A DNA stretch of 64,000 nt, taken from a virus (Duplodnaviria > Caudoviricetes). A program made the position numbers and the translations under genes. Where the stretch lies: the IMG/VR virus record IMGVR_UViG_3300022377_000098, positions 8,270-72,269 of that record. The stretch is one strand, 5' to 3'. The notes beneath the pieces are model-generated. The model made no database searches. It had not been told where the DNA came from and saw only the letters and a program-made list of their open reading frames with translations. Below are positions 7,021 through 50,595 of this stretch, in pieces (the stretch's first letter is position 1; every line of letters begins with the position of its first letter).

Positions 7021-7082
7021 ATAAAGAAAAGAACCGAAGCAGACAGCCTATTGGCTGAAAGTTTCGGTTCTCTTAGGAACTC

Positions 7083-17693: not shown

Positions 17694-17963
17694 TCACGCT
17701 TGCCCACCAGATTTCGGATTGCTGTACTGCAATGCCTGCGTACTGTCAGACACCCCGGCAGTAGTCGGGTCATTCACCACGCCAAGCAGCGTCAGCAGAC
17801 CAAACACAGTGCCTACAATCGCCAATAGCTGATTGCTCAGCCCCGCAAAGTCAACGGTAACGCCGAATAGCTGTAACACCTGCGCAACCAGCAGCAACAG
17901 TGCGGGGATAGCAGTTACCCAAAAAGCCTTGTTTTTGATTCGTACAGTCCAATTAATTTTCAT
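17694..17963 (-). CDS. holin (phi LC3 family)
   Basis: MKINWTVRIKNKAFW...GVVNDPTTAGVSDS. Confidence 0.9.
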   Translation of the reverse strand: MKINWTVRIKNKAFWVTAIPALLLLVAQVLQLFGVTVDFAGLSNQLLAIVGTVFGLLTLLGVVNDPTTAGVSDSTQALQYSNPKSGGQA

Positions 17964-17978
17964 TATGTATTACCTCCA

Positions 17979-18251
17979 TTATTTTAATTCGTCAAGTCGG
18001 TGGTGCGCTTGTTTGGCAGAACTTTCTACCGCGGTCAATCGTTCGCCATGCTCATTCAGAGTTGCATTGATTTTTACAAGTTCTGCCGTTGTACCTGACA
18101 CGCTGGATTTGATATCATCCAGTTTTGTATTTACCGTACCTTTCCACTCGCCGTCATTCGTCAGCTTTTTGTCCCGCCCACTAAGCCAGCCCGCCAAACC
18201 CACAAAACAGCCGACTACTGCAATCAGCAGTCCAATATCTATTGCACCCAT
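17979..18251 (-). CDS. lysis-cassette membrane/coiled-coil protein
   Basis: N-terminal TM helix, ERLTAVESSAKQAHHRLD. Confidence 0.7.
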   Translation of the reverse strand: MGAIDIGLLIAVVGCFVGLAGWLSGRDKKLTNDGEWKGTVNTKLDDIKSSVSGTTAELVKINATLNEHGERLTAVESSAKQAHHRLDELK

Positions 18252-18255
18252 CACA

Positions 18256-19107: not shown

Positions 19108-19124
19108 TATGTATCAGCCTCCAA

Positions 19125-21146
19125 TTATTTCAGCAGTACTTTAATGTGCGTGCTGTCTAACCGTGTCATCACACGGCAGTTTGTCTTTGTATCAGATTTG
19201 GTTGCCGTGCCATCCCCTGTTGCCGCAGGCTGTGCATAACCATTGACTGCACAGGTGCCATCATCAATCAGCACCAACTTACCGAGCATACCGACCGTGC
19301 TCCACTCAGGGCGCTTTTCACGATTTTCGTACTCGTTTTCTTTTGTGGGGTCATAGTTTGGATTGACTTTAAACCTTGTTTCTGTGTGCTCTGGTATAGC
19401 GGGCATAATTTCCACACCATTTTCATCCATCTTTGCAGGCTGTGCTGGAATTGTAACTTCCTCCAAAATGCGCCGCCCGAAAACGTCACAAGCGTAACGC
19501 TCTTTCCATGAGTCAGCAGGAGAGTCACCAATAATAGCGGGTAAAGCGGACACAATCCCTAACACATCATCATCTGGTTTTGCGTAACGGATTTTTTCGC
19601 CATCCAAAGTCACAAGTCGCCCGACTCTATCCTCCTTATTCGGGTTGCCGTCAAGCCACTCGAAGTATTCTGAATAATCAGCGCCGGAGGAATTGAAAGC
19701 AGACAGGCCATAGACGGAACCATTGAATTTAACGCGAAAGCAGTTAGAACGTGCTGTATCAGATGTGCCATTACCAATCACTAAAGCATCATTAGTTGTG
19801 GAAAATTCAGATGGGTTTCCTACTGAATTTTTGTTGTATTCACCCATAGAAAATTCGGATTTATCATGAGCTACGGAACAGTAGCCTAACGCTGTGGAAC
19901 AGTAGCCTAACGCTGTGGAGCCTCCTCCTAACGCTGTGGAACAGTAGCCTGACGCTACACAACCCCATCCTGACGCTGTGGATGCATATCCTGACGTTGT
20001 GGAACCCAATCCTGACGCTGTGGAATAGTGGCCTGACGCTGTACAATCCCGCCCCATACATACAGCATGGTCACCTAAAGTTGTACCTGCTTTTTGCCCT
20101 GCTGTTGGATTTTGTGACTTTAGCTGATAATCTGTAAGACTAACACTTGTAGCTACCCATGCTGTGCCGTCCCAAACATACGCTGTACCATTAACCAGAT
20201 GCCCCTTTGTATCGCCAGTCAGGTATGCGGCTTGCAGCGCATCAACCGTTGTATACGACTCACCATACGCAAATGCCGCGCCAGTGTCGCCTTTTTCGCC
20301 TTTCCACTGGTCTGCACTGTTTTTGTACGTCTGACTTTCGGTGTCCCAATCTTTCCACACACCACTTGCATCACGCTGCGGCACATGGCTTGCTTTTTCT
20401 GTGGCAGCGTTGGCGGCAGTGATGGCAGCTTGTGAGTCTGTTTCACGCTTTGTTTCTGCTGTCTGCCGCGTTTGCTCCGCTGCTATACGTGACTGCTCTG
20501 CCGCAACTCTGCCCGACTCGGCTGTGACGCGCCCTGACTCGGCGGTTACGCGGTTGCTCTCCGCAGTGTCCATAGCTGCTTGCTTTTGCGTAATGTCTGT
20601 AATTGCTGTAGTGGCGTTTGTTACGGCTGTTTGTGAATCTGACACGGCTTTATCAGCTTTCTGCTCTGACTCCTGCACAGACCCGAGTGCCTCAGCCAGT
20701 GAAACGAACTCGCTCGTAGATACGATTGTTTGTTCCATATCGTCAGTAGCAATGTCCAGCGTAATGCCGGTAGCTTTCAGTTCCGTGCCGTTGCTGCCGA
20801 AAATTGCTACTGTGCAATGCGCATTGCCCGCCGCTGCCGTCGTCTGCTGTGTGAGAACAAATGTAACGGTATTCGGGTTTCCATCTGCTCCATTCGCAAC
20901 GATTGTGCCATTAATAAACGTTGCATTACCGTCTGGCTTTTTTGTGTACAACCGCGCCGTGCATCCGGTCAAGTCAAGCGGCTTCTGCCGGATTTCTGTC
21001 TGTTGCAGTGCAGTTACTGTCTGTACGTTTTCCACAAGGTGAAGGGTCAGCATGCGGCTGTTTTCCTCACCCTGCACGGCGAATTTATTGATTAAATTTT
21101 CTTGCGATACATTTACCTGATATTCAGGTGATTCAATTCCTGCCAT
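19125..21146 (-). CDS. tail fibre/receptor-binding protein (BppU-like N-terminus, YadA-like repeats, C-terminal autoproteolytic chaperone)
   Basis: LDLTGCTARLY, xSTAxG heptads, GADYSEYFEWLDGN. Confidence 0.82.
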   Translation of the reverse strand: MAGIESPEYQVNVSQENLINKFAVQGEENSRMLTLHLVENVQTVTALQQTEIRQKPLDLTGCTARLYTKKPDGNATFINGTIVANGADGNPNTVTFVLTQQTTAAAGNAHCTVAIFGSNGTELKATGITLDIATDDMEQTIVSTSEFVSLAEALGSVQESEQKADKAVSDSQTAVTNATTAITDITQKQAAMDTAESNRVTAESGRVTAESGRVAAEQSRIAAEQTRQTAETKRETDSQAAITAANAATEKASHVPQRDASGVWKDWDTESQTYKNSADQWKGEKGDTGAAFAYGESYTTVDALQAAYLTGDTKGHLVNGTAYVWDGTAWVATSVSLTDYQLKSQNPTAGQKAGTTLGDHAVCMGRDCTASGHYSTASGLGSTTSGYASTASGWGCVASGYCSTALGGGSTALGYCSTALGYCSVAHDKSEFSMGEYNKNSVGNPSEFSTTNDALVIGNGTSDTARSNCFRVKFNGSVYGLSAFNSSGADYSEYFEWLDGNPNKEDRVGRLVTLDGEKIRYAKPDDDVLGIVSALPAIIGDSPADSWKERYACDVFGRRILEEVTIPAQPAKMDENGVEIMPAIPEHTETRFKVNPNYDPTKENEYENREKRPEWSTVGMLGKLVLIDDGTCAVNGYAQPAATGDGTATKSDTKTNCRVMTRLDSTHIKVLLK
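19875..20045 (-). repeat. 21-bp tandem repeats encoding 7-aa head repeats
   Basis: GAACAGTAGCCTAACGCTGTG and variants. Confidence 0.8.
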
Positions 21147-21147
21147 A

Positions 21148-23544
21148 TTAATTCCACCCCGTCATAACGCCACCATTAAAGTTTATTGTTACGGTACCGC
21201 CATCAGATTTTGTCAGTGGCCCGATTGAGCCATTCCAGCCATTTGTACCGTTAATCGTAAGCCCACTACAATCTACTGTGCCACTCGTGGCAATCAATCC
21301 GTTTGCGTGCAGTTCATTCGCTTTCAGCGCGCCCATGATTACCTGTGCATAGCTGCCACTGTTACTAAAATATGTGCCATGCCCGCTTGTGGGCTGAAAG
21401 CACATATCATATGTGCCCGTTTCAGGGTTGCTGCTCACGCCCAAATGTCCCAGCTTAGAGCCGTTATAGTAAAAGTCAAATCCGTCACCAGTAAACTGTA
21501 CGGATTGGCTTGAACCGTCCTTGTGGTTGAACGCGTACACAATGGCATCTGAACTCTGCGTAATCGCTGTGCTAACAACCGAATTAACTTCTGTCCTCGA
21601 TACCTTGCTGCTGATTTCATCCGCCTGCTGTGTAATCTGCGACTGCAAACCGCCCACCTTGTCATTGACGGATGACGTGATAGAGTCGGCAGTCATTTTT
21701 ATTTCTGCGTTGGTTTTCGTTTCGGAGTTCGTCACAGACAAATCAATCGTGTTGTACAGTTGCTTAATGTCGCTCATTTCGTCACCGTGTGACACCGTGC
21801 TTTCCAGCCCGTCAGCAAGCTTCTGAATTTTGATGCGCAGTTCTTCAGATTTCGTGTTCAGCGCTTGTAATTCATCCCACAGCTTTTCGGATTCAGAATA
21901 AAAATCGGAGGAATTTTCGGCCTGCGACTTTGCTTCACAGGAGATTGCTTCGGCAGAGTTCAGCTTATAAGTCAGATTGGTAATGACTGACTTGCGTCCC
22001 TCAATGTCCACAATGTCCCCCGCTTCCAGTGCAGGGTTGCTGTAAATCGTTGCGCTGTATGGCGTAATGGTGTTGCCTATCAGGTGTGGAGCTATATTGT
22101 CCACAATCTGCTGCACATTTGCCACATCACGGTGCTGCCGGACTGTTACCAGTCTGCCGGGTAAATCCGAAAAATCAGCAGACGTCAGCAGCTTGCCTTT
22201 GTACTCAATCTTTGCCGCATCAATTCCAGCAAAGCAACTATCCGACTGCAAGCGTGCAATGTCGTTATACAACACATCTACCAGCGCATTTATGCACGTC
22301 CATGCGTTTGTGCCGCTTTCCTTGTCCGTCTTTTTTGTGATATATCCTAAGTCAGCGGTTAAGTCCGCTTCTTCCTGTGCCATGCTTGACTGCGCAGTTT
22401 CGTAATAACTGGTAATGTACTTTGTCAATCCGTCTGGCAAGTCCTGCTTTGGCTCAAATGCGGCCGTTGCAACAGTTTTCGCACTGTCCTTTAGGTATGC
22501 AATGCAGGACTTCACATCTGAATCATACTGTTTTGCGCTGTCCACAAAGGTTTTACGCTCCGCGTCCGTGGGATTGTATGTACCGCCGTACCGGCTGCAA
22601 TAGTTTTGCAGTTCCACGCACTGCGATTTGATTCCCGCCAGTCGCGCAGGTACATCCGTATCCTTGCTTTTGATGGCGGAGTTGATGTTGACCGCCCATT
22701 CGTCGCAAATAACCTGTTCATATATTGCAGCTTGCAGTAGCTTATTGTCAGAATCTTTCAGGGTAATTACATACCCATCGTTGCCGGACTTCGCGTCAAC
22801 ATTTTTACTGTCAATCTTAACGCCGGTCACGGTAATATTGTCTTTTGCAGGCTCATACTTCTGGTAACTGCTGATATTGTACGGTGCGGTTGAATAGTCA
22901 AACCACTTGAATTCAAGTTCTCCGTCCGCATTGCATTGCGCATAACATCCTGCCAACTGTGCAATGTTCGCAATCACATCGTGATATGTGGAAGATGAAT
23001 ACTGCGGGTCTCTGAAAATCTGATAATCACTATTATGAAAAGTTTTAGTTTTCAGTGAAATTCCGCACTTGTCACAAACCTGCTGTGCAAGGTTTCCCAA
23101 TGTGACCGGATAAGTAACATCCATGTCAACTTTGCTGTCTGACTTAGAGAGATTTCCATATGCAGAAACCGTTATTGTATTGCGACCCTTGTAGTCATAT
23201 GCGTTGTATACACCTTGCTTCACCCATTCTACCGTGTCGCCGGTATAATCGCGCTTGACAACCATGCCAATGTACACGGTAATGCTTGCTTTGCAGAAAT
23301 CGCACTGCGTAAACTTTCCGTCAAAGTTATTCAGCATGATTGTACATAAGTCTGTAATCGCGGAGCCTACTGTATAATCAGACTTTGAAGAAACTCCGCT
23401 ATCAATGGTTACACTGCCTTGCATGATGTCTGCATCTTTTAGCGGGAATTCTGTTCCGTTTGCCAACTTCACATCTGCTTTGAAGTGGAATTCTCTGCCA
23501 TTTAGCAGAACAAATTTCTAAAAATCATCCGATACTGGTTTCAA
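21148..23544 (-). CDS. tail protein/baseplate hub; in-frame TAG at codon 9
   Basis: AAGGTGG RBS, TTG start, MKPVSDDF*KFV...KADVKLANG continuous with ORF-track call. Confidence 0.8.
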
Positions 23545-23557
23545 TCTATCGCCACCT

Positions 23558-23935
23558 TTACACTTCGACAAAGTCAAATTTTATGTTTGAAATCATGGAC
23601 TGGCTAAACCGCCCATTTTGCTTCACAAAATAATTGACTGGCGCGCTTCTGTCACCCACATAAAATGTTGCTGTGCGGTATCCTCCAAGCCTTATGTCCG
23701 GATATGTCAGCAGGAATGTTTCTGGCTGAACGTGCTGTAACAGCACAGATGCTCTTGCTTCCGTCATAGGAGCCCATGTGCAAGTAAGCTTCACCTACTG
23801 TGCCACTCTATCTTTGTGCATTAACCCCTACTGGTCGCGCCCTGCTTCTGAATCTGATATGTCTTGCAATGCCCATTCCATGGACTGCGGGGTTTCAATG
23901 GTGTTTCCGTTTACCATCAATGTTGACTGTGCCAT
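23558..23935 (-). CDS. distal-tail-like protein (DUF6711-like); TAG at codons 36 and 47
   Basis: MAQSTLMVNG...QDISDSEAGRDQ*GLMHKDRVAQ*VKLTCTW. Confidence 0.8.
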
Positions 23936-24041
23936 TCAGCTTCACCGTCCTTTACAATAAAAAAAGAGTATCACACTCATTTCTGAATATGACGCTCTTA
24001 TGGCGCTCTATGAAAACATAAATTTTTTTAATTATATTTTT

Positions 24042-24079
24042 ATTTTAGCATGCTTGAACTGATTTCGTCACTCAAAACC
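24042..24079 (-). promoter_or_regulatory. conserved phage promoter motif, copy 1
   Basis: GGTTTTGAGTGACGAAAT-14-TAAAAT. Confidence 0.65.
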
Positions 24080-24111
24080 TGTGAACTCAATGTTAATAGT
24101 TGCTTCCATTT

Positions 24112-24245
24112 GGTAGTCAATTTTTTTGACTAGGTGGTCTAATTTCTTGACTAGGGGTAGTCAAATAATTTGACTAGGGTAGTCTAGTTTCTTGACTACC
24201 TCTAATCCTTTATTTAAATATAATATAATTATAATATATATAAAG
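24112..24245. repeat. four tandem 22-23 bp imperfect palindromes plus AT-rich tract
   Basis: GGTAGTCAA-N5-TTGACTAGG x4. Confidence 0.75.
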
Positions 24246-24365
24246 CGCGGAGTTTTTAAAAAAATCTCCACGCAAAATCTAAAAAACGCTTCGCAAAAAA
24301 AATTCTGGTCAAAGGGAAAAAGACAAAAGAAAAGACCCACTTGAAAAATCAAGTGAGCCTAATCG

Positions 24366-27300
24366 TTAATGAGTTGGAACGTAACGTCTACTATCGATTG
24401 CTTTGTAATTTTGAGTTGAATCGTAAATGCTCTTGCCGTCAAGGTCTGCTGTAACATGAAGTTGAATTGGTTTTCCGCTGTTACTTTGCAGAATTGCAAG
24501 GATTGCGCCAACCTGATTTACAAGTTCATTCTGATTGGATGAATTTGCTGAATTGCCATTTGTCTGCTGTTCAGCAATGCCCTGTGCAATCTCTGCATAG
24601 GACTCTTTACGCATTGGTAAAGCGGCTTCTTTTCCTTTTTCACCTATGCCTATCAGCGTAGGTGCGTCATAGATGCCTCCATTTGCGTTCCAACCGCCCC
24701 AATCGATGTTTCCGATACCTTTTGCGTATCCGTGTCCTTGTCCCCACACGCCGTCAGGAGAACCATAACGCGCCCATGTGTAACGGATGGACGCGAGGAT
24801 GTTTGATAACGGGTCAAGAATGTTCGTGTTGTATCCGGGCAAAGCGTAAGTCGAAAATGTTTCAGGGATTAATTGCATCAAGCCTTTAGACGGATGCCCA
24901 GCGTAATAATTTACGTCATGCAGGTCTGACGGGTCGACCTGCCCACTGGATTCAGTGTTCATCTGTGCCAGCAGCAAATCCACATTGTGCGTGGAATAAT
25001 GTCCAGTCATCATAAGCGCCTTAGATGCAAGGCTTCTCCACTGTTCAACTCCAGAGCCAACATTTGCAACCGCACTCATTGCAACTTCCATTGCACTCTT
25101 GAAGTTCGGAATGCCATAGCCAAGAATGTTTCCAGAGTTTGAATTGCGATGCTTTCTGAATACACCCTCTGCGCCATCGCTTCCACTTGTGTTGCCCTCA
25201 ATCGTATTTACAAGACCGCTTGCAATGCTCTCAACGATGCCGATATGGTCGGCGGTACCGTTCTTGTCCCAATCATAGAAAATCAAATCGCCGCGTGCAG
25301 GATTGTTAGTCCAGCGGTTGGCTGACTTGAAATGGCTCATGGAATCCTCGCAGGAAGCAGATAGATATTCATCCACTCCCGCACGTTTCAAACACCAAGA
25401 CACGAACATATCGCACCAAGCGGCACCGTTCATTCCGAAGTCGCGCCCAAACTTTGTGAAGTCTGCATGACCGGCATTGGCTGCTTTATCGTCCAGACTG
25501 CTGTTTGAACCTTTTTCGAGATAGCCCAATTCCGATTCTGCAATCTTTAGGAATGCTTCCACGGTGCCGTTTCCGGGTGCTGTAAACTCTGCGAGTTGCT
25601 TTTTGATGAAGTCAACGGAATGACTTGTCAAGAACTGTACTGTGCTCTTTTCCATCTCGTTCCATGGGAAGTTAATGGATTGCATAGCCGTGTTTTTGTC
25701 TATAGCGGCGTGTAAGAGCATTTCGGGTTTGTCTAGGTAATTCCATATGTTTGTAGAAAAAGTGTCTAGAACGGCCTTAGAAGTGCCGAAAAAGTCGCCT
25801 ATACCGTTCGCATAGTGTGGGAACATCTGCTTTGTCTGTTTTGCAGGCAGTACAGACGAACCGGCAGGCAAATCAGGAATCAGCACATTGCGCCCTTGCG
25901 GAATAAATGCGTGACCGTTTGGGAGCTGAACCATTTCGCGATAAGTAGAGCCGGATTGGTCGTTGACAAGTGCTGCTCCGCCCGGATGATGCCCTGAACC
26001 ATAGGCATAGTGTTTGATGCTGATTGGCTTTACAGTTGCTTTAGAACCGACCGCAGACAGCACAGAGTTGATGCCCGCCACTACACCATTAATTGCGCCA
26101 CCAATTTTATCAGCAACATTGTTGTTGATGGCTTTGGAATGCTGATTCACAATGTTGTCAGAATCGCTCATGTAAATCTGTGCCGACTGTTTCACTTTAC
26201 TGAAATAAGTACTTGCATCAGATGAAATTGCTTTGAATTTACCGGAAGCATTGCTGTACATGCTGGAAGCTTTGGAACTCACATCACGTTCAGCAGACGC
26301 AAAGTTGCTCTGTTCAAAAGACTTTGCAGCAGAGAAATTTGCATTTGCACTTTTGGAAATCCCACTGAACTTTCCATCAATGAATGTGCTAATCCCATTC
26401 CACTTTGTGTTTGTGTCTGTCTGGATAGTGGCAGATGTATCAGAAACATTTGCACTGATTCCTTTCAGAAGCGTAGGCACAGAATTGTTCAGGCTTGCAG
26501 AGATTTCCTGATACTTTTTTGCGGTATAGTCTGTTTCGTCTGAAACAATTTTCTTGCGGGTGTCGGCAGAAGTGCGAAGATTGTCTGTAATCTGCTTAAC
26601 CTTTGCACCGGATTCTCCCAAAATGCTGGAATCGGTCTTTCCATTAACATTGAACACATTAGCAATAACTGTGCTTCCACTTTCGCCAGACGTTTTAGAA
26701 TTTTCCACAATTCCCTTTGCGAGAGCGGAAAACGTGCTGCTGTTCAATGGTAAAATAGCTTCGGAACCGGCCTCACCGACAACAGATAAAATTGGAGATG
26801 TTGTAATGCCACCCCTTGCTGAAAATGCAACACCAAGCAATTTAAGGATTTTGGGTATTGCCCCACTTATTAATCCTGCTCCACCAAGAGCGCCAGCTAA
26901 ATCAGAACCGGCTTTTGGCGGGTTTGTCTTTTGTATGGCTGCAGTCTGCTTTCCAGCCGAGTTCCACGCTTGACTAAACCAGTTTCCCACACTTTGCAGT
27001 GCTTTCCCAATGTTCTGAAATACAGTTGAAAAAGCAGTAAGCTGATACTGACAAGTCTTTTGCGTGTTGGTCTGCAGATTTGTTCCAAACTTTGCAAAAT
27101 CGTCTGATATGCCTTTCAGCTTTGCGTTAACCCGGTTGTGAGTTTCTCCGAGATAATATGATGCACTTGTGAGCACAGCTAACCATGTTGTTTTTGCCAA
27201 AGTCGGTATGCTTTTTGCGATATCCTGAAAACTCTGATTTGCGCCTTTTGAAAAGGCACTTACCTTATTGCCTGTTTGAGAATTGAGTTTTGATGACGTT

Positions 27301-29480
27301 TGAGAAAGTACGCTTTGCCACATTGCACTTGTAGCAGCAGTGACAGTACTTTCCATTCCACTAAATATCGATTCTGAATTTGCACTAAATCCAGATAACT
27401 TTTTTTGTGCTGACTGTGACTTTAGGCTCGTTTCAGAGTCAATATGGCTCCACGACTGCGCCCATGATGCTGCCATTGCAGTACCTGCCGCTCCAAATGA
27501 AACCTGCATATTGGTTGATAGAGAATTTACTTTTTCTTCTACAGGCTCAAATGATGGCAGAAATAAAGAAGAATCGAGCGCTGGAATTACTGCCGGCTGT
27601 ACTTCTGGAGCGGAAATTGGCTGCTGATACAAAGCTTTACCATATAGAAAATAATCAAGCACAACCGCAGGAGCGATCAGAGGTTCAAATACTGGTGCTG
27701 CTACAGGCTCCTGATACCTGCCTTTTGACTTCTGGTAATCTCCATCATCCAGAGGCGGCACATACACTGGAGGAATTTCAAGGCTAGGAACCGGAATCTG
27801 CTGAACTGCTTTTGCAACAGCTTCTGCTCCCTCTTTAACCTTTTGAGTAACGGTTTCAACGCTTTTCTTAGTTGCCTTTTCTTCCTTATCCCTTTTGTCG
27901 TCAATCTTGTCAAAAACACCTTTAATGTTCTTGAAAAGGTCGTTAAAATTCCAGTTTGACTTTGGAGTAGGAATTGTTTTGAACATTTTACTATAGTCAG
28001 GGTCACTACTCTTTTTACTGTCAGAATCAGAGGACTCTTTTTTATTCAGAACATTCAGTTCATCAAACCCCATAACCGTTCTCTGGAGTTCTTTTACTTT
28101 CTTCTTTGCCTTATCAGCACTGTCGCCTGTTTTGTCAAGTGAAGCAGCATAGTCAACATTCGTCTTTGTTGCAATAGTGACAGTCTTTTGCCCTGTAATC
28201 TGTGCAATGAAAATTGCAAGCTTATTAGCCGCTGCCGCAATCCCGTCTACAATATTAGTTATTGCCGGAGAAATTGCTTTCAATATTGCTAAAAGCGGTG
28301 CTGCAATCGCATTTTTTAGGTAGGTGAAACTGCTCATATACTTTGACAAAGTATCATTTGCGTCTTTATTACCTAGCGCAGCGTCTTTGAACCCTTCTGT
28401 AATACTGTTAAGTACGCCCTGAAACGCAGTGAATGCAATCATTCCAGTCATCATGTGCTTGATAATCGTTAGAGTGCTTTGGCCTGCGCCTTTTGCTTTG
28501 TTCCCCGCTCTTTCTGATTTATTACCAAACTTATCCATAGCAGAACCAGCTTCATTCGTAGTGGAAGCAATCTGCTCCATCTTCTCCGCAACTTTCTGCT
28601 GCTTTGCGGTTAGGCTGTTCATGGAATTTCCAGCCTTTAATACTCTGCTTTCCAGCTTTAAGTATTCCTCACTGCCAACGCCCTTTGAAGCGCCTGCTTC
28701 TTGTGCCTTTACTTTCAGATTTTGGTACGCAGTGGCGGCATTGTCAATCTGTGCAGCAAGTGACCGCAACTGTGCTTCAAGATTTGCAAATTGTGCGGCA
28801 GAATCACCAGAAATACCATTCATAGAGGATTTCAGACGTTCAATATACTGCGTCACTTCCTCAATGGCTTTTGTAGAATGGCTCGTGTTAACTTGCGCTT
28901 GCGTAGGCTGGCTCATAGCCTTTCTCAAATCAGAAACGTTCGGTTGCATAGAATGGTTTGCACTCACAGATTCACTTGCTTGACGCTGCAACGCAGACTG
29001 TGCAGCTTCGGTTGACATTTTATCAGTGCCACCATTGACATATCTGTCTACGGCTTTTGCCGCTAAATCAGTAATGGAATTGTCAGAATCCGCCATAAAT
29101 TTTTTAGCCTGCGCCGTCTTTTCAAGAGCAGCAGACAATTTTTCTGCTTGAATCTGTGAGCGTTGCATGGACACGTTTGCACGGTCAAGGCGCGCCTGAT
29201 ACATAGCCATGTTTGATTCTGCTTTTTTGGTGGCCTGCACATTTTTGTTTGTAACGTCTGCCCCCTCTTTTTCTGTATCATAGAACTTTTTAAGAGAAGC
29301 AAACGCTTTTGAAGATGATGCAATTTTGTCCATTTCTGCCGTAAAAGATTTCAGTGCAGGAATTGACTTAGTTAATGATGATTGGAAAGACTCAATCTTA
29401 GCAATCAGTTTGTCTAATGCACTATTTGCTTTTGTGGCAGAAGCCTATATTTCAATGTCAAGGCTGTTATCTTCTCCCAT
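24366..29480 (-). CDS. tape measure protein with C-terminal CHAP and SLT domains; TAG at codon 12
   Basis: MGEDNSLDIEI*ASATKAN...; WCDMFVSWC/HIGIVE CHAP; TESSG/GLMQL SLT. Confidence 0.9.
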
Positions 29481-29544
29481 AAATAATCACACTCCATCTA
29501 TATAAAAATAGGGATACAGCACGTCTGCCATACCCCTGTTTTCG

Positions 29545-29916
29545 TTAACATCTTCGTTCTCCCGTAATGACTTTGGGAGCAGTGCCGTTAAGCATTTTAT
29601 CAATCTCCTCTGACCGCTTACGGAAGTATGTTTCCATTGACTGTTGCTGCTCTTTTACAGACTCTTGCTTGCTCTTGGGAGCAAGCATTGATTCTGGCTT
29701 TGTCGGATACTGTACGCTGTCAGTTAAACAAGCGCCAACAGCCTGCATTACATAGTAGCCTTGCAACCATGCAGCCGTATCAGCCCGCTGCTGCCATAAC
29801 TCAATTTCAGCTTCATGCTTTATGTTGTAGGCATTCACATAAAGCCAAAACAATTCTGGTTCAGCGTTCCAAAACTCGTCATAGCTACACCCTGCTATTA
29901 CGGCCAATGGGAACAA
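29545..29916 (-). CDS. tail assembly chaperone, C-terminal part (probably a -1 frameshift product)
   Basis: SYDEFW motif, no RBS; -1 frame open back into the upstream chaperone gene. Confidence 0.6.
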   Translation of the reverse strand: MFPLAVIAGCSYDEFWNAEPELFWLYVNAYNIKHEAEIELWQQRADTAAWLQGYYVMQAVGACLTDSVQYPTKPESMLAPKSKQESVKEQQQSMETYFRKRSEEIDKMLNGTAPKVITGERRC

Positions 29917-29966
29917 TTCACATTCAAATTGTTCAGTTGCAGTTTTGTACTGCTTTTGCGGTTCTG

Positions 29967-30302
29967 TTACGCTGTTTTCTTCGGAGCCACGAGAAATGTC
30001 TTGCTCTTTGCAGACTTCCCGCCCTCGGTAAAAACCTCCATGAAAGGCTCTACCAGAGCACTGTAAATTTCATCCACTCCGAATTCTTCGATTGCCTTAT
30101 CGGAAATTTCAACAGCTTCGGAATAGCTGATATTCGGGTGGAACTTACCAAGCCCGCAGTAAAACAGTTTGTCGGCAGAAGTGTAGATTTTGTCCTACAG
30201 GTCGGAAACATTGCCGCCGATGCTCTCAAACTTACGAACAGAAGCGCGGTCATAGAACAGTTTGTAGGTCTTTTCACCCACATTTACATCAAAAGAATTC
30301 AT
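29967..30302 (-). CDS. tail assembly chaperone; TAG at codon 36
   Basis: MNSFDVNVGEKTYKLFYDRASVRKFE...SDL*DKIY. Confidence 0.78.
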
Positions 30303-30344
30303 ATTGTTATACCTCCGTTACATTCCTTAAAATTTTAGTTTCTG

Positions 30345-30782
30345 TTAAACAGTAGCAATCATTGTGCTTGTGTCTGCTACATGGTCGTGACTGGAAACGT
30401 TGACTGCCAGAGAGCACTTGCCTGCCTGCCCAGCAGAATAACCACTAATCCATGTTGCACCGGTTCCGACAAAGTGTTCGCCGCTGCCATCCTGATAGAC
30501 AATGAGAAAATCCTTTGGAATTTTCAAACTTACATATCCGCTTACAGCCGTATAGTTTGCTTCGGTGTGGTTGTACTCGAAATCATATGTAGGCGTGTCG
30601 GGACGGTCGGAAACGTACTGCTTGTATTCACTGTCCAATGTGGTAACTTCCAGTTTGTTAGGAGTGCCACCGGTGTCAGGAGTCTTAACAACGGATACCA
30701 GCTTTTCATACTAGCCAGCATCGTTCTTTTTCATCAGTTTAATGCCAATATCAGTAAGTGCAATAACATTTGCATCAGCCAT
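30345..30782 (-). CDS. major tail protein; TAG at codon 24
   Basis: KNDAG*YEKLV...PDTGGTPNKLEVTTLDS. Confidence 0.82.
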
Positions 30783-30799
30783 ATTTTATACCTCCGTAT

Positions 30800-31198
30800 T
30801 TACGAATAGATTTTGTTTCGGTAAGCGTCATACCGGCATGAATACCGCATAACGTACCTATAAATTGTCGTGTCTGAAACGTTCTGCATTGTGCCGGAAA
30901 ACTCGCACTTCATGTGCAAGTCATTTTCCAGAGAATCAGCAATAGCAGAACGGATTTTCATAGCTGTGGTTTCAGCAGTGCCGCCTTTAGTGTAAATCTC
31001 AATTTGGCAGGTAAATGAATACTTGCGTTCTCCATAATCAAGCGTGTGCTCAATTTCAGGGAAGTCAACATTCTGCACTGTGACATACGGGAATTGTGTG
31101 GACTGATTCTGAAAAGGCTTTACAACCAGTGCAGCAGGACATACAGAAAGTACCGCTTTCTTGACATATGTATAAACTGCATTTGTAAGGTCAACCAT
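30800..31198 (-). CDS. tail terminator-like protein
   Basis: FPYVTVQN, position before major tail protein. Confidence 0.65.
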   Translation of the reverse strand: MVDLTNAVYTYVKKAVLSVCPAALVVKPFQNQSTQFPYVTVQNVDFPEIEHTLDYGERKYSFTCQIEIYTKGGTAETTAMKIRSAIADSLENDLHMKCEFSGTMQNVSDTTIYRYVMRYSCRYDAYRNKIYS

Positions 31199-31682
31199 TC
31201 ACAATCACTCTCAATTCCTTATCGGTTAGTTCTTTTGCACGTTGTTTCAAATACTGTGCCGTCTTGTAAACAAAAGCGTTAGCAGGTTGTCCTTGCGTCC
31301 AACGTAGTTTCTGCGCCTTTTCATCAAAGTACCACCATCCGGCAGTGCCATGACTGTTTGAATCATACACCCATCCGGGAGCAGGATTAGGATGTGGACT
31401 GGTTGCGCCTTTAATCCCGGTTCCATACTCAACAAAGATAGCGTAGTCTGAACCAACCGAAATTCTTCCAGTACAGGTTGATTCATCAAACGTGCTGGAA
31501 ATGCTGTCTGACAGTTCCCCCGTAGAGCGTTTGACGACTGACTTCATGTAATCGCGCCCCTCTTGCGTAAGCTGCGAAATCACGCTTGCAAGGGTAGAAT
31601 CAACCTTGGAATTCAGACTTTCCAGTTGCTTTTTTGCTTCTTCCACAGACTATGGAGAAAGTGCATCAAAAGAGATTTTCAT
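31191..31682 (-). CDS. HK97 gp10-like neck protein; TAG at codon 11
   Basis: MKISFDALSP*SVEEA; YAIFVEYGTG, TQGQPANAFVY. Confidence 0.8.
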
Positions 31683-32083
31683 GTTTCTGTGCCTGCGACC
31701 TTTTTAATGTACACAGCATACTGCCAACCAGTGAAAATTACCTGTTTGACTGTATAGTTGTTGTTCATCGGGTGCTCTGCATCATCGTCCCGCAAGTTTC
31801 CGTTTGGTGTGACTCCGTACCATGCCGCTTCAAATTCCTCTGGAGAATACCCCTCAACATCAAACGGTGTGAACACGCATTTCTGCATTTTGGAAACGTC
31901 AGCGCCGTACTCTTGAATGTCTGCCGTATCGGTTATTGGCTGCACGTTCACATGGAATTCGGCAGGTTCGTCATAGCAGGAAATCATGTTCCCTGTTTCG
32001 AGCCCATTTTCGTCTTTTTCAGGAACAGGCGGCAGTTTCTTCGCAAACCAGATTGACTTTTTATCTTTGTTCAGGCTTCTCAT
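31679..32083 (-). CDS. head-closure protein
   Basis: position in neck module, 134 aa. Confidence 0.6.
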   Translation of the reverse strand: MRSLNKDKKSIWFAKKLPPVPEKDENGLETGNMISCYDEPAEFHVNVQPITDTADIQEYGADVSKMQKCVFTPFDVEGYSPEEFEAAWYGVTPNGNLRDDDAEHPMNNNYTVKQVIFTGWQYAVYIKKVAGTET

Positions 32084-32400
32084 GAAACCATCACCGCCAT
32101 AGGAATGACTTCTTTCAGCAGGGAATCAGGAATATCAGCATTTTCATAAGAGCGGTTGACTCCGTTCTCATTGTGAGCCGTTTCCCCCTCCGCTCCTTGC
32201 TTGTTATAAAGAAAAATTGCAATCTGAATTTGCAGTTCGTTATATTGGCTTTCCAGTGGAGCGTCAGGCGGTGACCGTCTGCGCTCTTTAATTCTCGACT
32301 CTGCCCGGTCAAGCATAAGGTTCAGCTTTTCATCCTAGGAAGTGTCGATTACTGGAATATCAAGCCATACTTTCAGCTAATCAAGCTGTGTAGTAGTCAT
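32080..32400 (-). CDS. head-tail connector; TAG at codons 8 and 22
   Basis: MTTTQLD*LKVWLDIPVIDTS*DEKLNLML; YNKQGAEGETAHNENGVNRSY. Confidence 0.85.
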
Positions 32401-32557
32401 TGATATTATCCTTTCCGCGTTACTCGTTTCTTCTCTGTGACGGCTTCTGCTACAGCGGGCTTAGAATCTGTATGCACCGGCTGTTTTACCGGCACATCTT
32501 CACCCGCCATATAAAACTTGTCACCATGTTTTACAATGTGGTCGAATTTCACAGCAA

Positions 32558-33637
32558 TCAAGCCACCTTTGCAACATAGACTTCGTCCATACGCTCATAG
32601 GACGGCGCAAGGATTTCGGAAGCGGTGGTAATGGTCTGGTACGGCGCTTCTTTTGTGGTACTTACGGTGATGGTGATACCTGTGTTGAAGATAGCAAGCT
32701 GGTTGCCAGCCTGACGTGCAGAGCGTTCCTCCGGTGTCATGCCATACCACATAGTGCCAACGGAGCCGCCAGCGGGCAGGAAAGTAACATAACCATCCGG
32801 CATAAACGGATGTGCAGTGCCATCAATGCCCTTGTACATCTTATCGTAGACAATAATATCAATGCCGCACTTGATACGTAAGAACTGTGCAAGCAGATTA
32901 TCATCCATGAAGATGTTTGCAGTAGCGTTCTGCGCCAGAATTGCAGACTTAATCTGTGCATTCTCCGGCAGATTATCAAACGTTGCCTGTGACATAATGG
33001 CAGTGGACAGCACTGTTCCGTTCTCTTTCAGAGCATTGCGCTTGATGGTACGAATGTCAGATAGCGGCTTAGAATTAGCCGTATCACTCCACAGGTTTGT
33101 GCCGGTCAAAGCAGTGTAGTGCTTTGCTTTCCATGTGCCGTCAGCATCATAGTTCATGGTGTAACTTGCACCATCTTTTCCAGTCAAATTGATAATGGGA
33201 CTTCCGTCAACTGGTGCAAGCAGACTGAATGCCATAATTTCAGGCACTACCATAGCACCATCACGCAAAGTACCAGCATCATCAAAGATGCGGTTCAAAA
33301 CGTCCTGCACAAACGGGTCGTTTGCATCACGATTCTGCACTTCCATCAAATCCTGAATGTCCTTTTCTTTGACAATCATAGACTCACGGAAGAATGCCAG
33401 TTCCGTTTCAGAACGGCTCACACCTGCACGGTCGCGGAATGTCGGCTTTGCATCAAAGCTAGACAGATTGATTGCAACCGGAAGTCCCTTTGTGCCTTTC
33501 AGCCAAGACACAGTTAGCCCGGTTTTCTTTCGCGGTGCGAAGAAAGCACTGCCAAGATACGGGATTTCATTGGAATACGCAGTTGTCCAATCGTTTGCAA
33601 CTGCATTTGCCGTAAAAATGTCCTAAAGTTCAGCCAT
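32558..33637 (-). CDS. major capsid protein (capsid E family); TAG at codon 5
   Basis: GGAGG RBS, MAEL*DIFTANAVA...LSSFDAKPTFRDR. Confidence 0.88.
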
Positions 33638-33652
33638 ATTTTATTCCTCCTA

Positions 33653-33967
33653 TTAGCCGATAAACTGAATATCTTTCAGTGCGGTTTTTGCTTCTGCTGC
33701 CGGTGCTGCCGGAAGTGCCGCGCTTTTGATAAATCCGTGGATAACAATAGTTGCGGTGCGGTCACCATCTGTAACATTTGTGTCAAACAGCAACACACCC
33801 TCTGCTGTTGCATCGTTTGCGGGGAGAATTGTGCCAGCCGGTACAATCTTTTTTCCCTCTGAATTCGCGGTTACGCCAGTAGCACTAACGGTGTACGGCT
33901 TGCCAACATAATGGTCGTTGTACAAAATTTCTTTTGTTGCAGTAACCGTTTCAGTTTTTACATTCAT
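33653..33967 (-). CDS. head decoration protein
   Basis: KKIVPAGTILPANDATAEGVLLFD. Confidence 0.72.
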   Translation of the reverse strand: MNVKTETVTATKEILYNDHYVGKPYTVSATGVTANSEGKKIVPAGTILPANDATAEGVLLFDTNVTDGDRTATIVIHGFIKSAALPAAPAAEAKTALKDIQFIG

Positions 33968-34650
33968 TTATTTGTACCTCCCAATCTGTAGTGGTCGATT
34001 GCGGACTTTGCTGCTTTTGCGTGTTCAGTAGTGTCCCTACCTAGCACTTTGAGAATGTTAGTAGAAGAATCACCTGCAGGCTTACTGTCCGCATTCCCTG
34101 CTTTTGGCGGCTTTGCGCTCGCCATTTCAGCCTTGATTTTATCATTGGCAATCTTTTCCGACTGCGCCTTAATAACGTCAATCACGGACTTCACGGCTGC
34201 ATCAGTGGTATCCTTGTCGGCTGTTACAACCGTGTCAAGAATCTTCGAGTATGCCTTTTCATCAACGCCTGCAAGCACGAACTGGCGCTCTGCTGAAAGC
34301 CTGTTGCGGTCTTTCGCAAGGCCGTTCTTTGCGGCTTCAATTTCCGCTTTTGCATCATCAATCTGCTTTTTAGCCAACTGGTCTGCGGTCATTTTGGACT
34401 CTACTTCCATTTGACTCTTGATTTCTTCGCGCAGATTGGTTTCGCGGGTTTTCAATGCCTGCTGAATCGCGCGGTCATAATCTCCCTGTGATTCAAAAGT
34501 CTTAAAAGGCTCTGACTTTACTGTAATTCCGTCTGCTTTTTGCGTTACAACCGTTGAATCGCCTGTTGATGCATTAGCAACGGCGCTTACATTTGCGTCA
34601 GCGCTGGACTGAACAGCGGTTCCGACTGCTGTATTAGCTTCTTCTGCCAT
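33964..34650 (-). CDS. scaffolding protein (DUF4355-like)
   Basis: FESQGDYDRAIQQALKTRE; upstream of capsid gene. Confidence 0.75.
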   Translation of the reverse strand: MAEEANTAVGTAVQSSADANVSAVANASTGDSTVVTQKADGITVKSEPFKTFESQGDYDRAIQQALKTRETNLREEIKSQMEVESKMTADQLAKKQIDDAKAEIEAAKNGLAKDRNRLSAERQFVLAGVDEKAYSKILDTVVTADKDTTDAAVKSVIDVIKAQSEKIANDKIKAEMASAKPPKAGNADSKPAGDSSTNILKVLGRDTTEHAKAAKSAIDHYRLGGTNK

Positions 34651-34764
34651 TTTTCTTTCCTCCGTTGTGCCGCACCGTAACAGATATATAGTCCTCATAA
34701 GTGTTCAATCTGTGCCGTTGCGTCTGATTGTTTTTGATTTATAAGTAAGTGGAATCCCACATAC

Positions 34765-35151
34765 TCACGAATTTAAATAGTCTGCGATTTCAGACAAACT
34801 CTTGAAATATTTTCCACCATTTCGCTGAACCATAAGGCCAACCCTATCAAGGGATTTATACTGTCCAATGCTGAACTTCAAATCTGGTTCATCAATAAAG
34901 GCGAATACGGTCTTTTCAGGGCGTTTGTTGCTATCGTCAACGACTTCTGCAATGCTGTAAACTCCCTGCATTCGTGGAGTGATAACGTACAAGCAAAAAT
35001 CATCATTTGTGCGCTCCTGCAATTCCTACTGATAGCATTCTTCTGTCCAGTCAGGTACAACCGGATTGAAATAATCAATCTACAGCATTGAAATCAGTTT
35101 TTTACGCCATTTGCTTTCTGCACAGGTGCCGCCTAAAAACACTTTCTACAT
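34765..35151 (-). CDS. nucleoside 2-deoxyribosyltransferase-like protein; TAG at codons 2, 24, 42
   Basis: M*KVFLGGTC...WR...L*IDYFNPVVPDW...YSIAEVVDDSNKRPEKT. Confidence 0.8.
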
Positions 35152-35169
35152 ACTGTTATGTCCTCAATT

Positions 35170-35976
35170 TTATAGACAAGCGGAAAATTTCTTCCGTGTG
35201 CCGTCTAGGTAAATTATCGGTGTATCTTTTGAAGATGGTTTGAATTCACCAGTCTGCCCATAGCCACCATAATCAAGGCAAGCAGACGTGTTTACAAATA
35301 GCTTGTCTACCGATGACACGGTGCTATTGCGAATGTCTGCCCTAAAGAAAGATTCTTTTAATACCATAGGCAAGTGCGTATGGCTATGAATGTAAACGTC
35401 TGCATCAACAATGCTTTCCATATCAGCAAGGCGATTTATCTTTGAACCCTCTTTGCGGCCACCACCACTTCCATGCGTGGCATAAATGGTGTAGCATACC
35501 ATTCTACTTTTGCCACTTCCATTGGTTTCCTTGTGGCCGTCAGACGTACTCCCAAATCTAAGGAATATGAAGTTTCCCTCTGCACAATATCTATCTTCTA
35601 TGCCGAGTTCCCTCGCAATCAGCCTTGAAATATCAACACCATCCTGCCGGTAAACTCTCCGTTCGTGATTTCCGTCCTGCATAGAAACAATCTTGTCTTT
35701 TATTGGAAAAAGCAAGTTGCAGCATTCTTCAATCTCTTGCATTGGGGAGAGCCTTTCAGCATAGCAATCTGATACGCTTGTTTTAGTTGCCGTGTTCATT
35801 AGGTCGCCATTAAGAATGCAATATGCATTTTCGGTGTCATGAATATGGTCTATGCGTTGCTGAATCAGCTTCCTGTCACAGGCTTTATCACCAATATGTA
35901 GGTCGCCTATTACATTCAATTCAACCGAACTTAGATTTCGTGAAAGGTCTGCTTTAACAATGTGAATTCTAATCAC
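35170..35976 (-). CDS. calcineurin-like metallophosphoesterase
   Basis: GDLHIG, NGDL, GNHE, HG, HTH motifs. Confidence 0.85.
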   Translation of the reverse strand: MIRIHIVKADLSRNLSSVELNVIGDLHIGDKACDRKLIQQRIDHIHDTENAYCILNGDLMNTATKTSVSDCYAERLSPMQEIEECCNLLFPIKDKIVSMQDGNHERRVYRQDGVDISRLIARELGIEDRYCAEGNFIFLRFGSTSDGHKETNGSGKSRMVCYTIYATHGSGGGRKEGSKINRLADMESIVDADVYIHSHTHLPMVLKESFFRADIRNSTVSSVDKLFVNTSACLDYGGYGQTGEFKPSSKDTPIIYLDGTRKKFSACL

Positions 35977-36001
35977 TTCCTTTGCTTATGGTTCTATAAC
36001 A

Positions 36002-36075
36002 TGGAGCGAATAACCAGAATCGAACTGGCACCGTCTGATTGGAAGTCAGAAGTTCTACCGTTGAACTATATCCGC
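36002..36075 (-). tRNA. tRNA-Gly(TCC)
   Basis: GCGGATA...TCTGA-CT-TCC-AA-TCAGA...CGCTCCA. Confidence 0.92.
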
Positions 36076-36142
36076 ATAAGTGAATAGCTTTACCGCACGC
36101 TGTGGCGGTCGTTTTGCAGGCAGTAGGCTATTAGACTTGCCG

Positions 36143-36228
36143 TGGTGGAAGATTGAGGAATCGAACCTCACTTCATGTGCACACCTTTTCTTCCATAAAG
36201 CGGCATTTCAGCCGCAATGATTTCTTCC
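36143..36228 (-). pseudogene. degenerate tRNA-Ser-like RNA lacking D arm
   Basis: GGAAGA/TCTTCC acceptor, TTCGATT T loop, CCA, hairpin GCGGC-TGAAAT-GCCGC. Confidence 0.5.
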
Positions 36229-36358
36229 AATTTGCAGAAGCGTTTGCTTTTTGATTTCTTGCAGCCGTTCAAGTTCTGCAATCTGCTCTGCGTTTGGGCG
36301 TGGCAAAGAGCGGATGTTATCTATCTGCTTATTTACATCACGCCACTGTTTCACGCTG

Positions 36359-36583
36359 TCATTCATCTGCTTTTGTAAGGTCGATGTCTTTTAAAAACTT
36401 TTCAAAGCTGTCACGATAACGAGCAATTATAATTGTCATTGCCACATATGCCACGGCAAAGAATGCAGTTACAACAATCAGGGGCAAGAATACTACCGCC
36501 CACGGAATAGCAGGAAGTGCAAGCAGCTTCAAGAGCAAAATCAGCGCTGTAAGAACCGAAGTTGGAATATAAATCTCTTTCAT
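36359..36583 (-). CDS. small membrane protein
   Basis: two hydrophobic segments. Confidence 0.55.
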   Translation of the reverse strand: MKEIYIPTSVLTALILLLKLLALPAIPWAVVFLPLIVVTAFFAVAYVAMTIIIARYRDSFEKFLKDIDLTKADE

Positions 36584-36813
36584 TTTTTCTCCTTTTCCAC
36601 ATTAGCTCGCAATTTCTTGATATAAGCGTCAGATAAGCTTGTTTCGCAATTTGTTGCATTGAGTTCAAGTTTTAGTATGGGAAGCGAATGGACGGAATCC
36701 TGCAAGAGCGTAAAAGACCTTACGTCATGAATCTCATGTCCATCTATGAAGATGCGGGTAATTGCGCAGTTGGTCTTAGCTTGAACCTCACCTTTAATCT
36801 GAATATTTTGCAT
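36580..36813 (-). CDS. hypothetical protein
   Basis: GGAGG RBS, 77 aa. Confidence 0.55.
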   Translation of the reverse strand: MQNIQIKGEVQAKTNCAITRIFIDGHEIHDVRSFTLLQDSVHSLPILKLELNATNCETSLSDAYIKKLRANVEKEKK

Positions 36814-36891
36814 TTTAAATACCTCCGTTAATTAAAAAATAGCCGAAGCAGACAGCCTATTGGCTGCAAGTTTCGGTTCTCTTAGGAACTC

Positions 36892-37059
36892 TTATTTTAT
36901 GTACCCACTCTGCATATTCCCACAACGCGGGCATTTGACTTCATAGTATCCGTTAAACTCACCCAGTTTTTTGTTGCACTTTCGGCACCGGGCTTCCTTT
37001 AGATTCGGTGTTGTTTGTTGGATTCGCAAGTTGTTTGCTGTCTGAACTTCCTTTAGCAT
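36892..37059 (-). CDS. Com-family zinc finger overlapping the portal 3' end
   Basis: same RCRKC...CPRC DNA as 7083-7187. Confidence 0.7.
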   Translation of the reverse strand: MLKEVQTANNLRIQQTTPNLKEARCRKCNKKLGEFNGYYEVKCPRCGNMQSGYIK

Positions 37060-38560
37060 CTGATTCCTCATTTCCTGTAGGAATTGTGTTGTTTGTAGGC
37101 GCAAGCATAGCCGCCGCTTCATCCGTTTTCTGCTTCCAATATTCTTCTCCACGCTTTGCCATTTCGTTAGGCATTTCTGTAAAGTTGGAAAGCTCAATCG
37201 CATCTGTAGGAGTAAGAACTTTAGTCGCCATCAAAGTTGAAAGTGTCTGCGACTTGTTAAGCATATTGTTTGTGCGGTTACGGACAAAGTTTACCTCAAC
37301 ATCCATCGGCTTGATGTCAATGTTGCTGAATCGCTTTAAAATCTTGCAAACCATACGGAGCATTTGCTTTTCTGACTTCTTGAAATTTCTCTGCTTACAC
37401 CGTGCTACAACTTCAAGGCTCTGGTATCCGTCACGCAGATAAACTGCATCCCCTGTGTCGCCAGTGCCGCCGCCCTTTGCCTTACGGTCAGGAATTCCGG
37501 TAATGGCGTACACATAGTCAATCAAAGTCTGTGCAAGCGTTTCAGCTTCGTTCTGATTGACGCCGGAATTTACATACTTCACGTCTGCTGGATTCTGCTG
37601 GTCGGAAGTCATTTCAAGAGCCATGCCTTGCTTCATCTTTTCAAAATCAGAAGTCCCACCATTCTCTTTTGCCGTTTTCAAGTGGCAGTTCACAAACACA
37701 AGCAGGCTGTTTACAAGCTGTTCAACACTGTTTACACGGTCACTGTGCAGCTTGTTCAACGCGTCAAGAATTGTCAACACGGATTCAAAGTCGCCCATAC
37801 GGCACTGATTGTTTTTGTACTCCACAATTGGAACAGCACCAAGCAAATGTGCTTTTGGATATCCGCTTACAAGGTCTTTTGCAGTAATAGTTGTCTGTAC
37901 TCCAGCGACTTCATACTGATATTGGTATGTGTTGTCATACACCGTGTACACTCTGCCGGTTGCGTTTCCGTAATCATCTAAAATATCAGAGAACGTAACG
38001 CCAAGTACAGGCTTTTTTACAGAATCAGTGGAATAAATGACGAATGTTGAACGTGCATCAAGTGTCGGAATCTCAAATGGTGCTTCATCCTCATCGCATT
38101 TTTCATCCACCGCAACAAGACGATATCCAACGCCACAAACGGAAGCACTTTCGCCAACGTCCATGTCGTTTGCGGCTTTATCTTCGCTGTCCATATACTC
38201 ATTTAGAGAGTCAATATCGCTGCGCTCTTTATCGCTACCGCCTTTTGAAGTGTACTTGATTGGCTCGCCGAGGAAATAGCCGTTTGCGTTACGCACAATA
38301 GCCAGAGCGTTGTTAATCACGATGCGGTTATTGATTTCCGGCCTAACCTTTTTTTCGCGGTAAATGATTGGCTGATTGCCTTTGTAGTAATTATACAGAT
38401 ATTCAATTTCCTGCTGATTATTTGCAAACTGTACCATAGCGCCGTTTACGATTCCCGGTATGGTTTCTTCACTGATTTCATTTGAAGTGCATAATTCCTA
38501 TCTACCTAAAAATGTATGGTCTTCACCATACCATGCAGTGGATAGAATATCTTCAATCAT
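36959..38560 (-). CDS. SPP1-type portal protein; TAG at codon 21
   Basis: MIEDIL...FLGR*ELCTS...YLYNYYKGNQ, NGYFLGEP. Confidence 0.88.
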
Positions 38561-38794: not shown

Positions 38795-38870
38795 TGGTGC
38801 GCCATCTGCGGCTCGAACGCAGGCCACCCGGATTTAGAGTCCGGTGCTCTTCCAACTAAGTTAATGGCGC
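38795..38870 (-). tRNA. amber suppressor tRNA(CUA), tRNA-Lys-like body (element 2)
   Basis: 76 nt GCGCCAT...CCGGA-CT-CTA-AA-TCCGG...GTTCGAGC...ATGGCGC-A-CCA. Confidence 0.92.
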
Positions 38871-50591: not shown

Positions 50592-50595
50592 ATAT

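Follow-up and report, generated by a model that had tools for sequence, protein, structure and literature searches.

Start-proximal in-frame TAG codons, very probably read as lysine, and a possible gate on virion synthesis in a temperate siphophage of the Oscillospiraceae

The stretch of DNA analysed here (the window; 64,000 nucleotides, bases 8270-72269 of the 72,269-bp virus record IMGVR_UViG_3300022377_000098) contains the minus-strand late operon of a siphophage, in which most packaging, head and tail genes are interrupted by in-frame TAG codons that nearly all lie close to the start codons. This early placement is real and far from random. The 15 genes within 21148-38560 comprise 5038 codons; ten of these genes carry in-frame TAGs, 14 altogether, and every one of the 14 falls in codons 2-47 (binomial P = 2.6e-12), namely at codons 2, 5, 8, 9, 11, 12, 21, 22, 24, 24, 36, 36, 42 and 47. 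Over the whole late operon, from the large terminase (TerL) to the endolysin (19 genes, 7158 codons), 14 of the 16 TAGs are in that range (binomial P = 5e-11); the first 50 codons carry TAG at 14.7 per 1000 and the remainder of the genes at 0.3 per 1000, a 45-fold enrichment, and where the N-terminal rate predicts ~91 later TAGs, two are seen. Comparison with the positions of AAA plus AAG codons gives the same picture (Fisher test, P = 3.5e-10). The early limit is set by the number of codons from the start and does not scale with gene length, since the tape measure has its TAG at codon 12 of 1704 and the DUF6711 gene its last one at codon 47 of 125. A positional bias this strong needs selection, and drift cannot explain the placement. 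An earlier note on this DNA, made from the letters alone, had argued likewise that neutral drift would scatter the TAGs, and phage phAss-1, a comparator that uses code 15, does scatter them. The note had placed 16 of 18 TAGs in codons 2-47 of 13 genes with ~5370 codons; the early clustering holds and the positions it named are exact (tape measure 12, portal 21, capsid 5, tail hub 9), while the total of 18 and the gene and codon counts were not reproduced.

One objection is that the TAGs lie upstream of the true start codons, or that the prophage is dying and they are its nonsense mutations. Standard gene callers do choose later starts, beyond the TAGs, as the earlier note had warned. In the GenBank annotation of the Caproicibacterium amylolyticum genome CP060696.1 (L186, 1056864-1078424), which carries a sister prophage (G001), the TAG-bearing genes are truncated or split: portal is annotated with 497 of 533 amino acids, TerL with 404 of 558, the tail tube with 97 of 145 and the adaptor with 81 of 106. 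Yet artefact or decay deserves hardly any credence. Start sites were picked by ribosome-binding site (RBS) together with homology to relatives, and PHROG, Pfam and the relatives align across all 16 TAG sites, with homologues sharing the N-terminus. For the capsid, portal, adaptor, neck, tail-tube, chaperone and tape-measure proteins, alignments with the nearest standard-code relatives found (L015 and L016, from a fermentation metagenome, with 68% capsid identity) begin at the initiator methionine of the relatives and run through the TAG positions. Profile coverage (PHROG or Pfam) includes the TAGs of the DUF6711, tail-hub and deoxyribosyltransferase-like genes; for the tail hub the match to phrog_6616 starts at position 3, only two codons past the TTG. 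Because the sites are spanned by homology to standard-code relatives, the starts are not wrong, and strong RBSs stand ahead of the upstream ATGs with none at the downstream candidate starts. Decay is opposed by the interruptions being only TAG, never TAA, TGA or a frameshift, by identical sites in four independent assemblies (two IMG/VR contigs, a metagenome contig and the C. amylolyticum chromosome), by the presence of two intact suppressor tRNAs, and by the TAG that occupies the invariant catalytic lysine in the TerL of relatives. Orthologues in L016, L003-L011 and L187/L188 have no N-terminal TAG, and in standard-code relatives TAG serves as a true stop. The individual genes are listed in Table 1.

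Table 1. TAG-bearing late genes, the TAG-free end of the operon and the two tRNA(CUA) genes (window positions).
Feature	Positions	Strand	TAG codons	Remarks
Large terminase TerL	40723-43458	-	83, 366	912 amino acids; PHROG terminase matches
Portal, SPP1 type	36962-38560	-	21	TAG in conserved F-L-G-R-x-I-Y-T-S motif; phrog_64; L016 aligns from its own Met
Nucleoside 2-deoxyribosyltransferase-like gene	34768-35151	-	2, 24, 42	Pfam PF15891 over residues 2-70
Major capsid	32561-33637	-	5	strong AGGAGG RBS upstream of ATG
Head-tail adaptor	32083-32400	-	8, 22	phrog_132 over residues 2-97; alignment to L015/L016
Neck / HK97 gp10-like	31194-31682	-	11	ATG overlaps upstream TGA
Major tail protein (tail tube)	30348-30782	-	24	phrog_158 over residues 18-116
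Tail assembly chaperone, upstream frame	29970-30302	-	36	61% identity to L016 orthologue, R at site
Tape measure	24369-29480	-	12 (single)	1704 amino acids; PHROG tape-measure matches; L016 Q at site
DUF6711 / phrog_1194 distal-tail gene	23561-23935	-	36, 47	phrog_1194 residues 3-125, E = 5e-33; Pfam PF20458
Tail hub / tail protein	21151-23544	-	9	TTG start; RBS AAAGGTGG
TAG-free operon end	17694-21146	-	none	BppU/Peptidase_G2 appendage 19128-21146; endolysin 18259-19107; holin-like ORFs (open reading frames) 17982-18251 and 17694-17963
tRNA(CUA) copy B	38795-38870	-		between TerL/Ant/tRNA-Met/tRNA-Ser and portal; ARAGORN, Rfam tRNA 56 bits; A73, encoded CCA
tRNA(CUA) copy A	6945-7020	-		in the 23.6-kb small element, whose head genes have no in-frame TAG

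What amino acid is inserted at these sites? Both genes for a tRNA with the anticodon CUA, tRNA(CUA), score 56-57 bits in Rfam and have orthologues in the related phages L001, L002 and G001. The best overall matches of the tRNA body are to tRNA-Lys(UUU), and the anticodon loop is one change away from that of tRNA-Lys(CUU). The clade has three variants of the tRNA whose acceptor and T stems differ by compensatory changes, a sign that the tRNA works. Rfam detected no ribozyme or other RNA adjoining the tRNAs. The clearest indication comes from the terminase. In the intein-less TerL of L001 (1127-2800) and G001 (L186:7040-8713) the Walker-A motif reads P-P-G-S-G-TAG-S-T; G-K-S/T is found there in four standard-code terminases, and AAA in the window. 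Codon 310 of the L001 portal is an additional TAG that corresponds to AAG in the window, and most portal homologues inspected have K or R at site 21. Code 15 (TAG = Gln) fits neither the alignment of TAG with lysine nor the Lys-like tRNA body with A73. It is very probable from these comparisons that TAG is read as lysine in the late genes. The assignment UAG = Lys was not found reported for any virus or bacterium in the literature searched; the nearest case is reportedly a ciliate in which UAA is read as lysine.

The TerL gene of the window differs from those of L001 and G001 in that residues ~148-501 (window 41956-43017) form a LAGLIDADG-type intein inserted directly after the Walker-A GK, which is absent from both relatives. 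The TAG at codon 366 lies inside the homing-endonuclease domain of this intein (Pfam LAGLIDADG_3 and Hom_end at 357-440).

The larger of two elements in the window, from ~15,400 to the window end, is a temperate siphophage, an Oscillospiraceae prophage with a close relative in C. amylolyticum: it matches the prophage at ~1,038,874-1,089,961 of CP060696.1, a complete genome of a named bacterium that appears to be an isolate, block by block at 82-98% nucleotide identity. Its late operon starts from a perfect TTGACA-17-TATAAT promoter (43802-43774), which is followed by a helix-turn-helix (HTH) gene, TerL, an Ant-like gene, tRNA-Met, tRNA-Ser and tRNA(CUA), then by the portal, head, neck and tail genes, and ends with the endolysin and holin-like genes near 17,700. 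None of the 19 late genes uses TAG as its terminal stop, and eight of them have no TAG at all, including those for the scaffold, decoration protein, tail terminator, receptor-binding appendage, holins and endolysin. TAG terminates at least two early genes, 53183-53446 and 51904-52134, both with strong RBSs, and the HTH gene (43511-43750). In the early region at 46-64 kb no supported in-frame TAG was found; an ATG-TAG start at 50591, in the early gene 50184-50621, was considered and rejected, the surroundings being AT-rich and lacking an RBS.

Some further features of these genes were noted. The HTH gene (minus strand), of Cro/C1 type, lies directly behind the consensus sigma-70 promoter with its TAG stop just ahead of TerL; readthrough would add 31 residues overlapping the TerL start, and in L001 and G001 this ORF carries two TAGs three codons apart. 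The tape-measure gene is bracketed by two terminator-like hairpins with 12-bp stems on the minus strand, one upstream of the RBS (29537-29510) and one just past the stop (24360-24333). At the record edge, the ORF 63586-63993 (minus strand), also with a TAG stop, is built of ~24-nucleotide tandem repeats (V-Q-P-Q-P-V-I-T units) and differs in repeat number from the G001 prophage.

Relatives were sought in IMG/VR, JGI/ENA metagenomes, a set of 5.8 billion proteins, 301 host-family genomes and 12 genus genomes. Capsid and portal searches over this material yielded only five recoded members, which constitute one narrow clade: the window, L001, L002, L014 and G001. The closest standard-code relatives, L015/L016, have neither in-frame TAGs nor a suppressor. 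L187 and L188 were considered as recoded because of their truncated portal calls and rejected; they are standard-code phages with TTG/GTG starts. A protein with 71% portal identity and a short N-terminus (P0002) was not traced to DNA. A scan of IMG/VR for similar tRNA(CUA) bodies returned 19 heterogeneous loci, mostly in large phages, and is noisy without gene calls; in the unrelated IMG/VR phages L211 (2832-3477, plus strand), L208 and L224 a tRNA(CUA) is followed by a 191-codon ORF with TAG as the third codon after the candidate start.

A uniform distribution of TAGs in relatives, which the earlier note had named as the result that would refute its reading, was not what these phages displayed. 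The sister prophage G001 has 11 early TAGs out of 13, with a tape measure of 1895 amino acids and a single TAG again at codon 12. All core TAG sites compared are kept, 8 of 8 in L001 and 8 of 8 in G001. Synonymous differences affect 29% of the codons for identical residues between the window and L001, with 24% AAA/AAG switching and 13% four-fold transversions. TAGs do turn over in the deoxyribosyltransferase-like gene (codons 2, 24 and 42 in the window versus 2 and 45 in L001/L002), still below codon 50. At the TAG sites L016 has E, S, R, Q, K, K, R and Q, i.e., the sites are hypervariable polar positions.

How could such an arrangement work? The C. amylolyticum genome that hosts the sister prophage, which stands in here for the host of the window phage, encodes release factor 1 (RF1; prfA, 526.6 bits, above the curated cut-off). 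With RF1 in the host and UAG in frame, 11 late proteins would need the phage tRNA(CUA) to reach full length, and on this evidence the suppressor dependence claimed by the earlier note appears well founded. Without sufficient tRNA(CUA), ribosomes would start normally on 11 packaging, head and tail genes and abort after 1-46 residues (82 in TerL). Because the tRNA gene lies within the late operon, virion output should depend on the accumulation of both mRNA and tRNA. Such a feed-forward filter would mute leaky late transcription in the lysogen and sharpen the switch. Selection confines UAG almost wholly to the first ~50 codons; with such early placement failed attempts would be cheap, and the released peptides would be of a length that can neither fold nor interfere with assembly. 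That the early TAGs are kept because virion synthesis thereby depends on accumulated tRNA as well as on mRNA is the explanation we prefer and, in our judgement, an evenly poised proposition; the maintenance for gating, the timing of tRNA expression and the efficiency of suppression are inferred. In favour of the gate, 16% of N-terminal lysine codons are TAG and none in the relatives with 68% identity, and the two most abundant virion proteins, capsid and tail tube, carry a TAG.

Several observations weigh against such a gate. Genes with at least one early TAG number 10, close to the ~9.9 expected if 14 TAGs were Poisson-distributed among 19 N-terminal windows, which gives no sign of a rule of one per gene; this occupancy, together with the eight TAG-free late genes, lends no support to the earlier claim of one early stop per structural gene. 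Holins and endolysin are among the unlocked genes, as that note had already seen, and a premature holin would harm the lysogen more than a premature capsid protein. The tRNA(CUA) gene itself is inside the late operon, has no separate promoter or terminator that is convincing, and is apparently co-transcribed with the genes that need it, and is thus not obviously an independent key. Mid-gene TAGs, which contradict a strictly N-terminal lock, occur only in low-copy or dispensable products (TerL at 83, and at the Walker-A codon 146 in relatives, the intein endonuclease at 366 and one portal allele at 310), as minimisation of harm predicts. Finally, the 8 of 8 sites conserved in L001 are not significant, as the expected loss rate is too low and the comparison underpowered.

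The same observations fit a neutral ratchet combined with position-dependent purifying selection, by which dependence on the tRNA would be a by-product and not a selected lock. In this scenario tRNA-Lys(CUA) was gained for another reason, an essential TAG (e.g., that for the terminase Walker-A lysine) fixed it, and AAG-to-TAG changes then drifted in; they would be tolerated where incomplete suppression costs least, in the first ~50 codons, where the products are short, cheap and non-toxic and slow decoding gives rise to no ribosome collisions inside a heavily translated ORF. The Poisson-like gene count, the roughly uniform spread within codons 2-47, the hypervariable polar positions, the restriction of mid-gene TAGs to low-copy or dispensable products, the unlocked lysis genes, the location of the tRNA in the same operon and the turnover in the non-essential deoxyribosyltransferase-like gene all speak for it. 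It sits less well with the share of TAG among N-terminal lysine codons as compared with none in close relatives, and with the TAGs in capsid and tail tube, where yield loss costs most; the retention of all eight core sites in L001 despite the synonymous divergence points the same way, short of significance. We regard this explanation as quite possible though clearly below an even chance. Gate and tolerance both fit the data and are not mutually exclusive.

In length, the range of codons 2-47 matches published codon ramps. A translational throttle, in which UAG within the first 30-50 codons, slow to be decoded because RF1 competes for it, would act as an extreme rare codon that spaces ribosomes or sets the ratios of virion proteins with no on/off switch, gains from this coincidence and from the view that recoded stops are codon-based regulation taken to an extreme (Borges et al., bioRxiv 10.1101/2021.08.26.457843). 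It is nonetheless improbable, since TAG number is unrelated to expected copy number (one in the capsid gene, three in that of a small accessory enzyme), the high-copy scaffold and decoration proteins have none, and a codon that terminates when unread is a costly brake. Local sequence offers little beyond position: in-frame starts are not depleted after the TAGs (gaps of 0-39 codons, unremarkable by inspection), and purines at the +4 position (11 of 14 TAGs versus ~65% expected) are not significantly enriched. A terminator-like 7-bp hairpin with a T-run at 38531-38514 (minus strand) covers portal codons 10-16, just before TAG 21; no equivalent was seen at other TAGs.

The second element of the window, from 1 to ~15,400, is 23.6 kb long (genome 55-23,651) and encodes a large terminase, portal, protease, sigma factor, Rha-type regulator, repressor, DnaD-like protein and tyrosine integrase. 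A 54-bp repeat flanks it and marks the insertion site. It may be a satellite or a neighbour carrying a spare key. Its presence raises another explanation, that early TAGs make virion genes useless to recombinants or competitors without the tRNA, while the neighbouring element keeps the key in order to exploit the late proteins. The element has the paralogous tRNA(CUA) and no in-frame TAG in its own terminase, portal, protease and other long head-module ORFs, and it is missing from the C. amylolyticum prophage locus, all as such a conflict would have it. The early placement of the TAGs is left unexplained by it, and we consider it very improbable. Upstream of the tRNA(CUA) of this element, a ~165-bp block (7027-7191) has 94% identity to the 3' end of the G001 portal gene (host 1068317-1068480), which by synteny corresponds to window ~36820-36996.

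Returning to the gate, the fullest form of this reading is a minimal lock-and-key code, in which about a dozen UAG(Lys) codons, early in core virion genes or at a catalytic lysine, would make assembly the logical AND of late transcription and tRNA-Lys(CUA) accumulation, with early placement as an evolved design rule and a spare key held by the neighbouring element. It is put forward tentatively, at somewhat less than an even chance.

Late-gene recoding is known from other phages. Borges et al. proposed recoding as a gate on late genes and on the switch between lysis and lysogeny, and described the Topaz phages as TAG-recoded Oscillospiraceae prophages of ~22-24 kb that are highly fragmented under the standard code. 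The code 15 crAss-like, Lak, Garnet and Topaz phages resemble the window in having a phage tRNA(CUA) and in-frame TAG only in late genes, in early genes that use the standard code with TAG as a stop, in a standard-code host and in residence as a prophage in an Oscillospiraceae chromosome. The recoded phages of Borges et al. have many TAGs per gene, assumed to be glutamine, whereas the clade of the window has 13-16 TAGs in ~50 kb, mostly in codons 2-47 and aligned with lysine; that paper makes no statement on TAG position within genes. In the two virulent lineages for which the paper tested it, crAss-like and Agate, recoding favoured the lysis genes; in the window the endolysin and two holin-like ORFs are free of TAG, which departs from the lysis-timing model, as the earlier note had pointed out. 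Phage phAss-1 (OQ749652) likewise has TAG-interrupted virion genes and tRNA-SUP-CTA genes, but its TAGs, read as glutamine, are spread evenly over the full length of long ORFs, with 13 of the 212 in the first 50 codons of the ORFs scanned.

A further parallel is the laboratory amber (sus) mutant, in which a nonsense codon near the start leaves a short, inert fragment and has polar effects. There, as in the window, virion genes are conditional on a single UAG and a suppressor tRNA; the laboratory mutants are artificial single mutations rescued by a host tRNA, whereas the window has about a dozen natural, inherited sites and a phage-borne tRNA. Judged by its sequence, the window phage is a case of late-gene stop-codon recoding, distinct in its sparse start-proximal placement, its apparent lysine assignment and its TAG-free lysis genes.

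The idea that phages regulate late genes by stop-codon recoding is widely quoted, but its basis is enrichment at the level of genes in phages that are uncultured and heavily recoded. The present case involves no more than 13-16 codons, with a relative in the genome of a named bacterium, which makes the hypothesis directly testable. If the positional rule is general, it would provide an annotation signature for sparsely recoded prophages that gene callers silently truncate, and a guide to the placement of UAG in engineered amber-dependent phages or in biocontainment. The apparent reading of UAG as lysine would be a new entry among natural variants of the genetic code.

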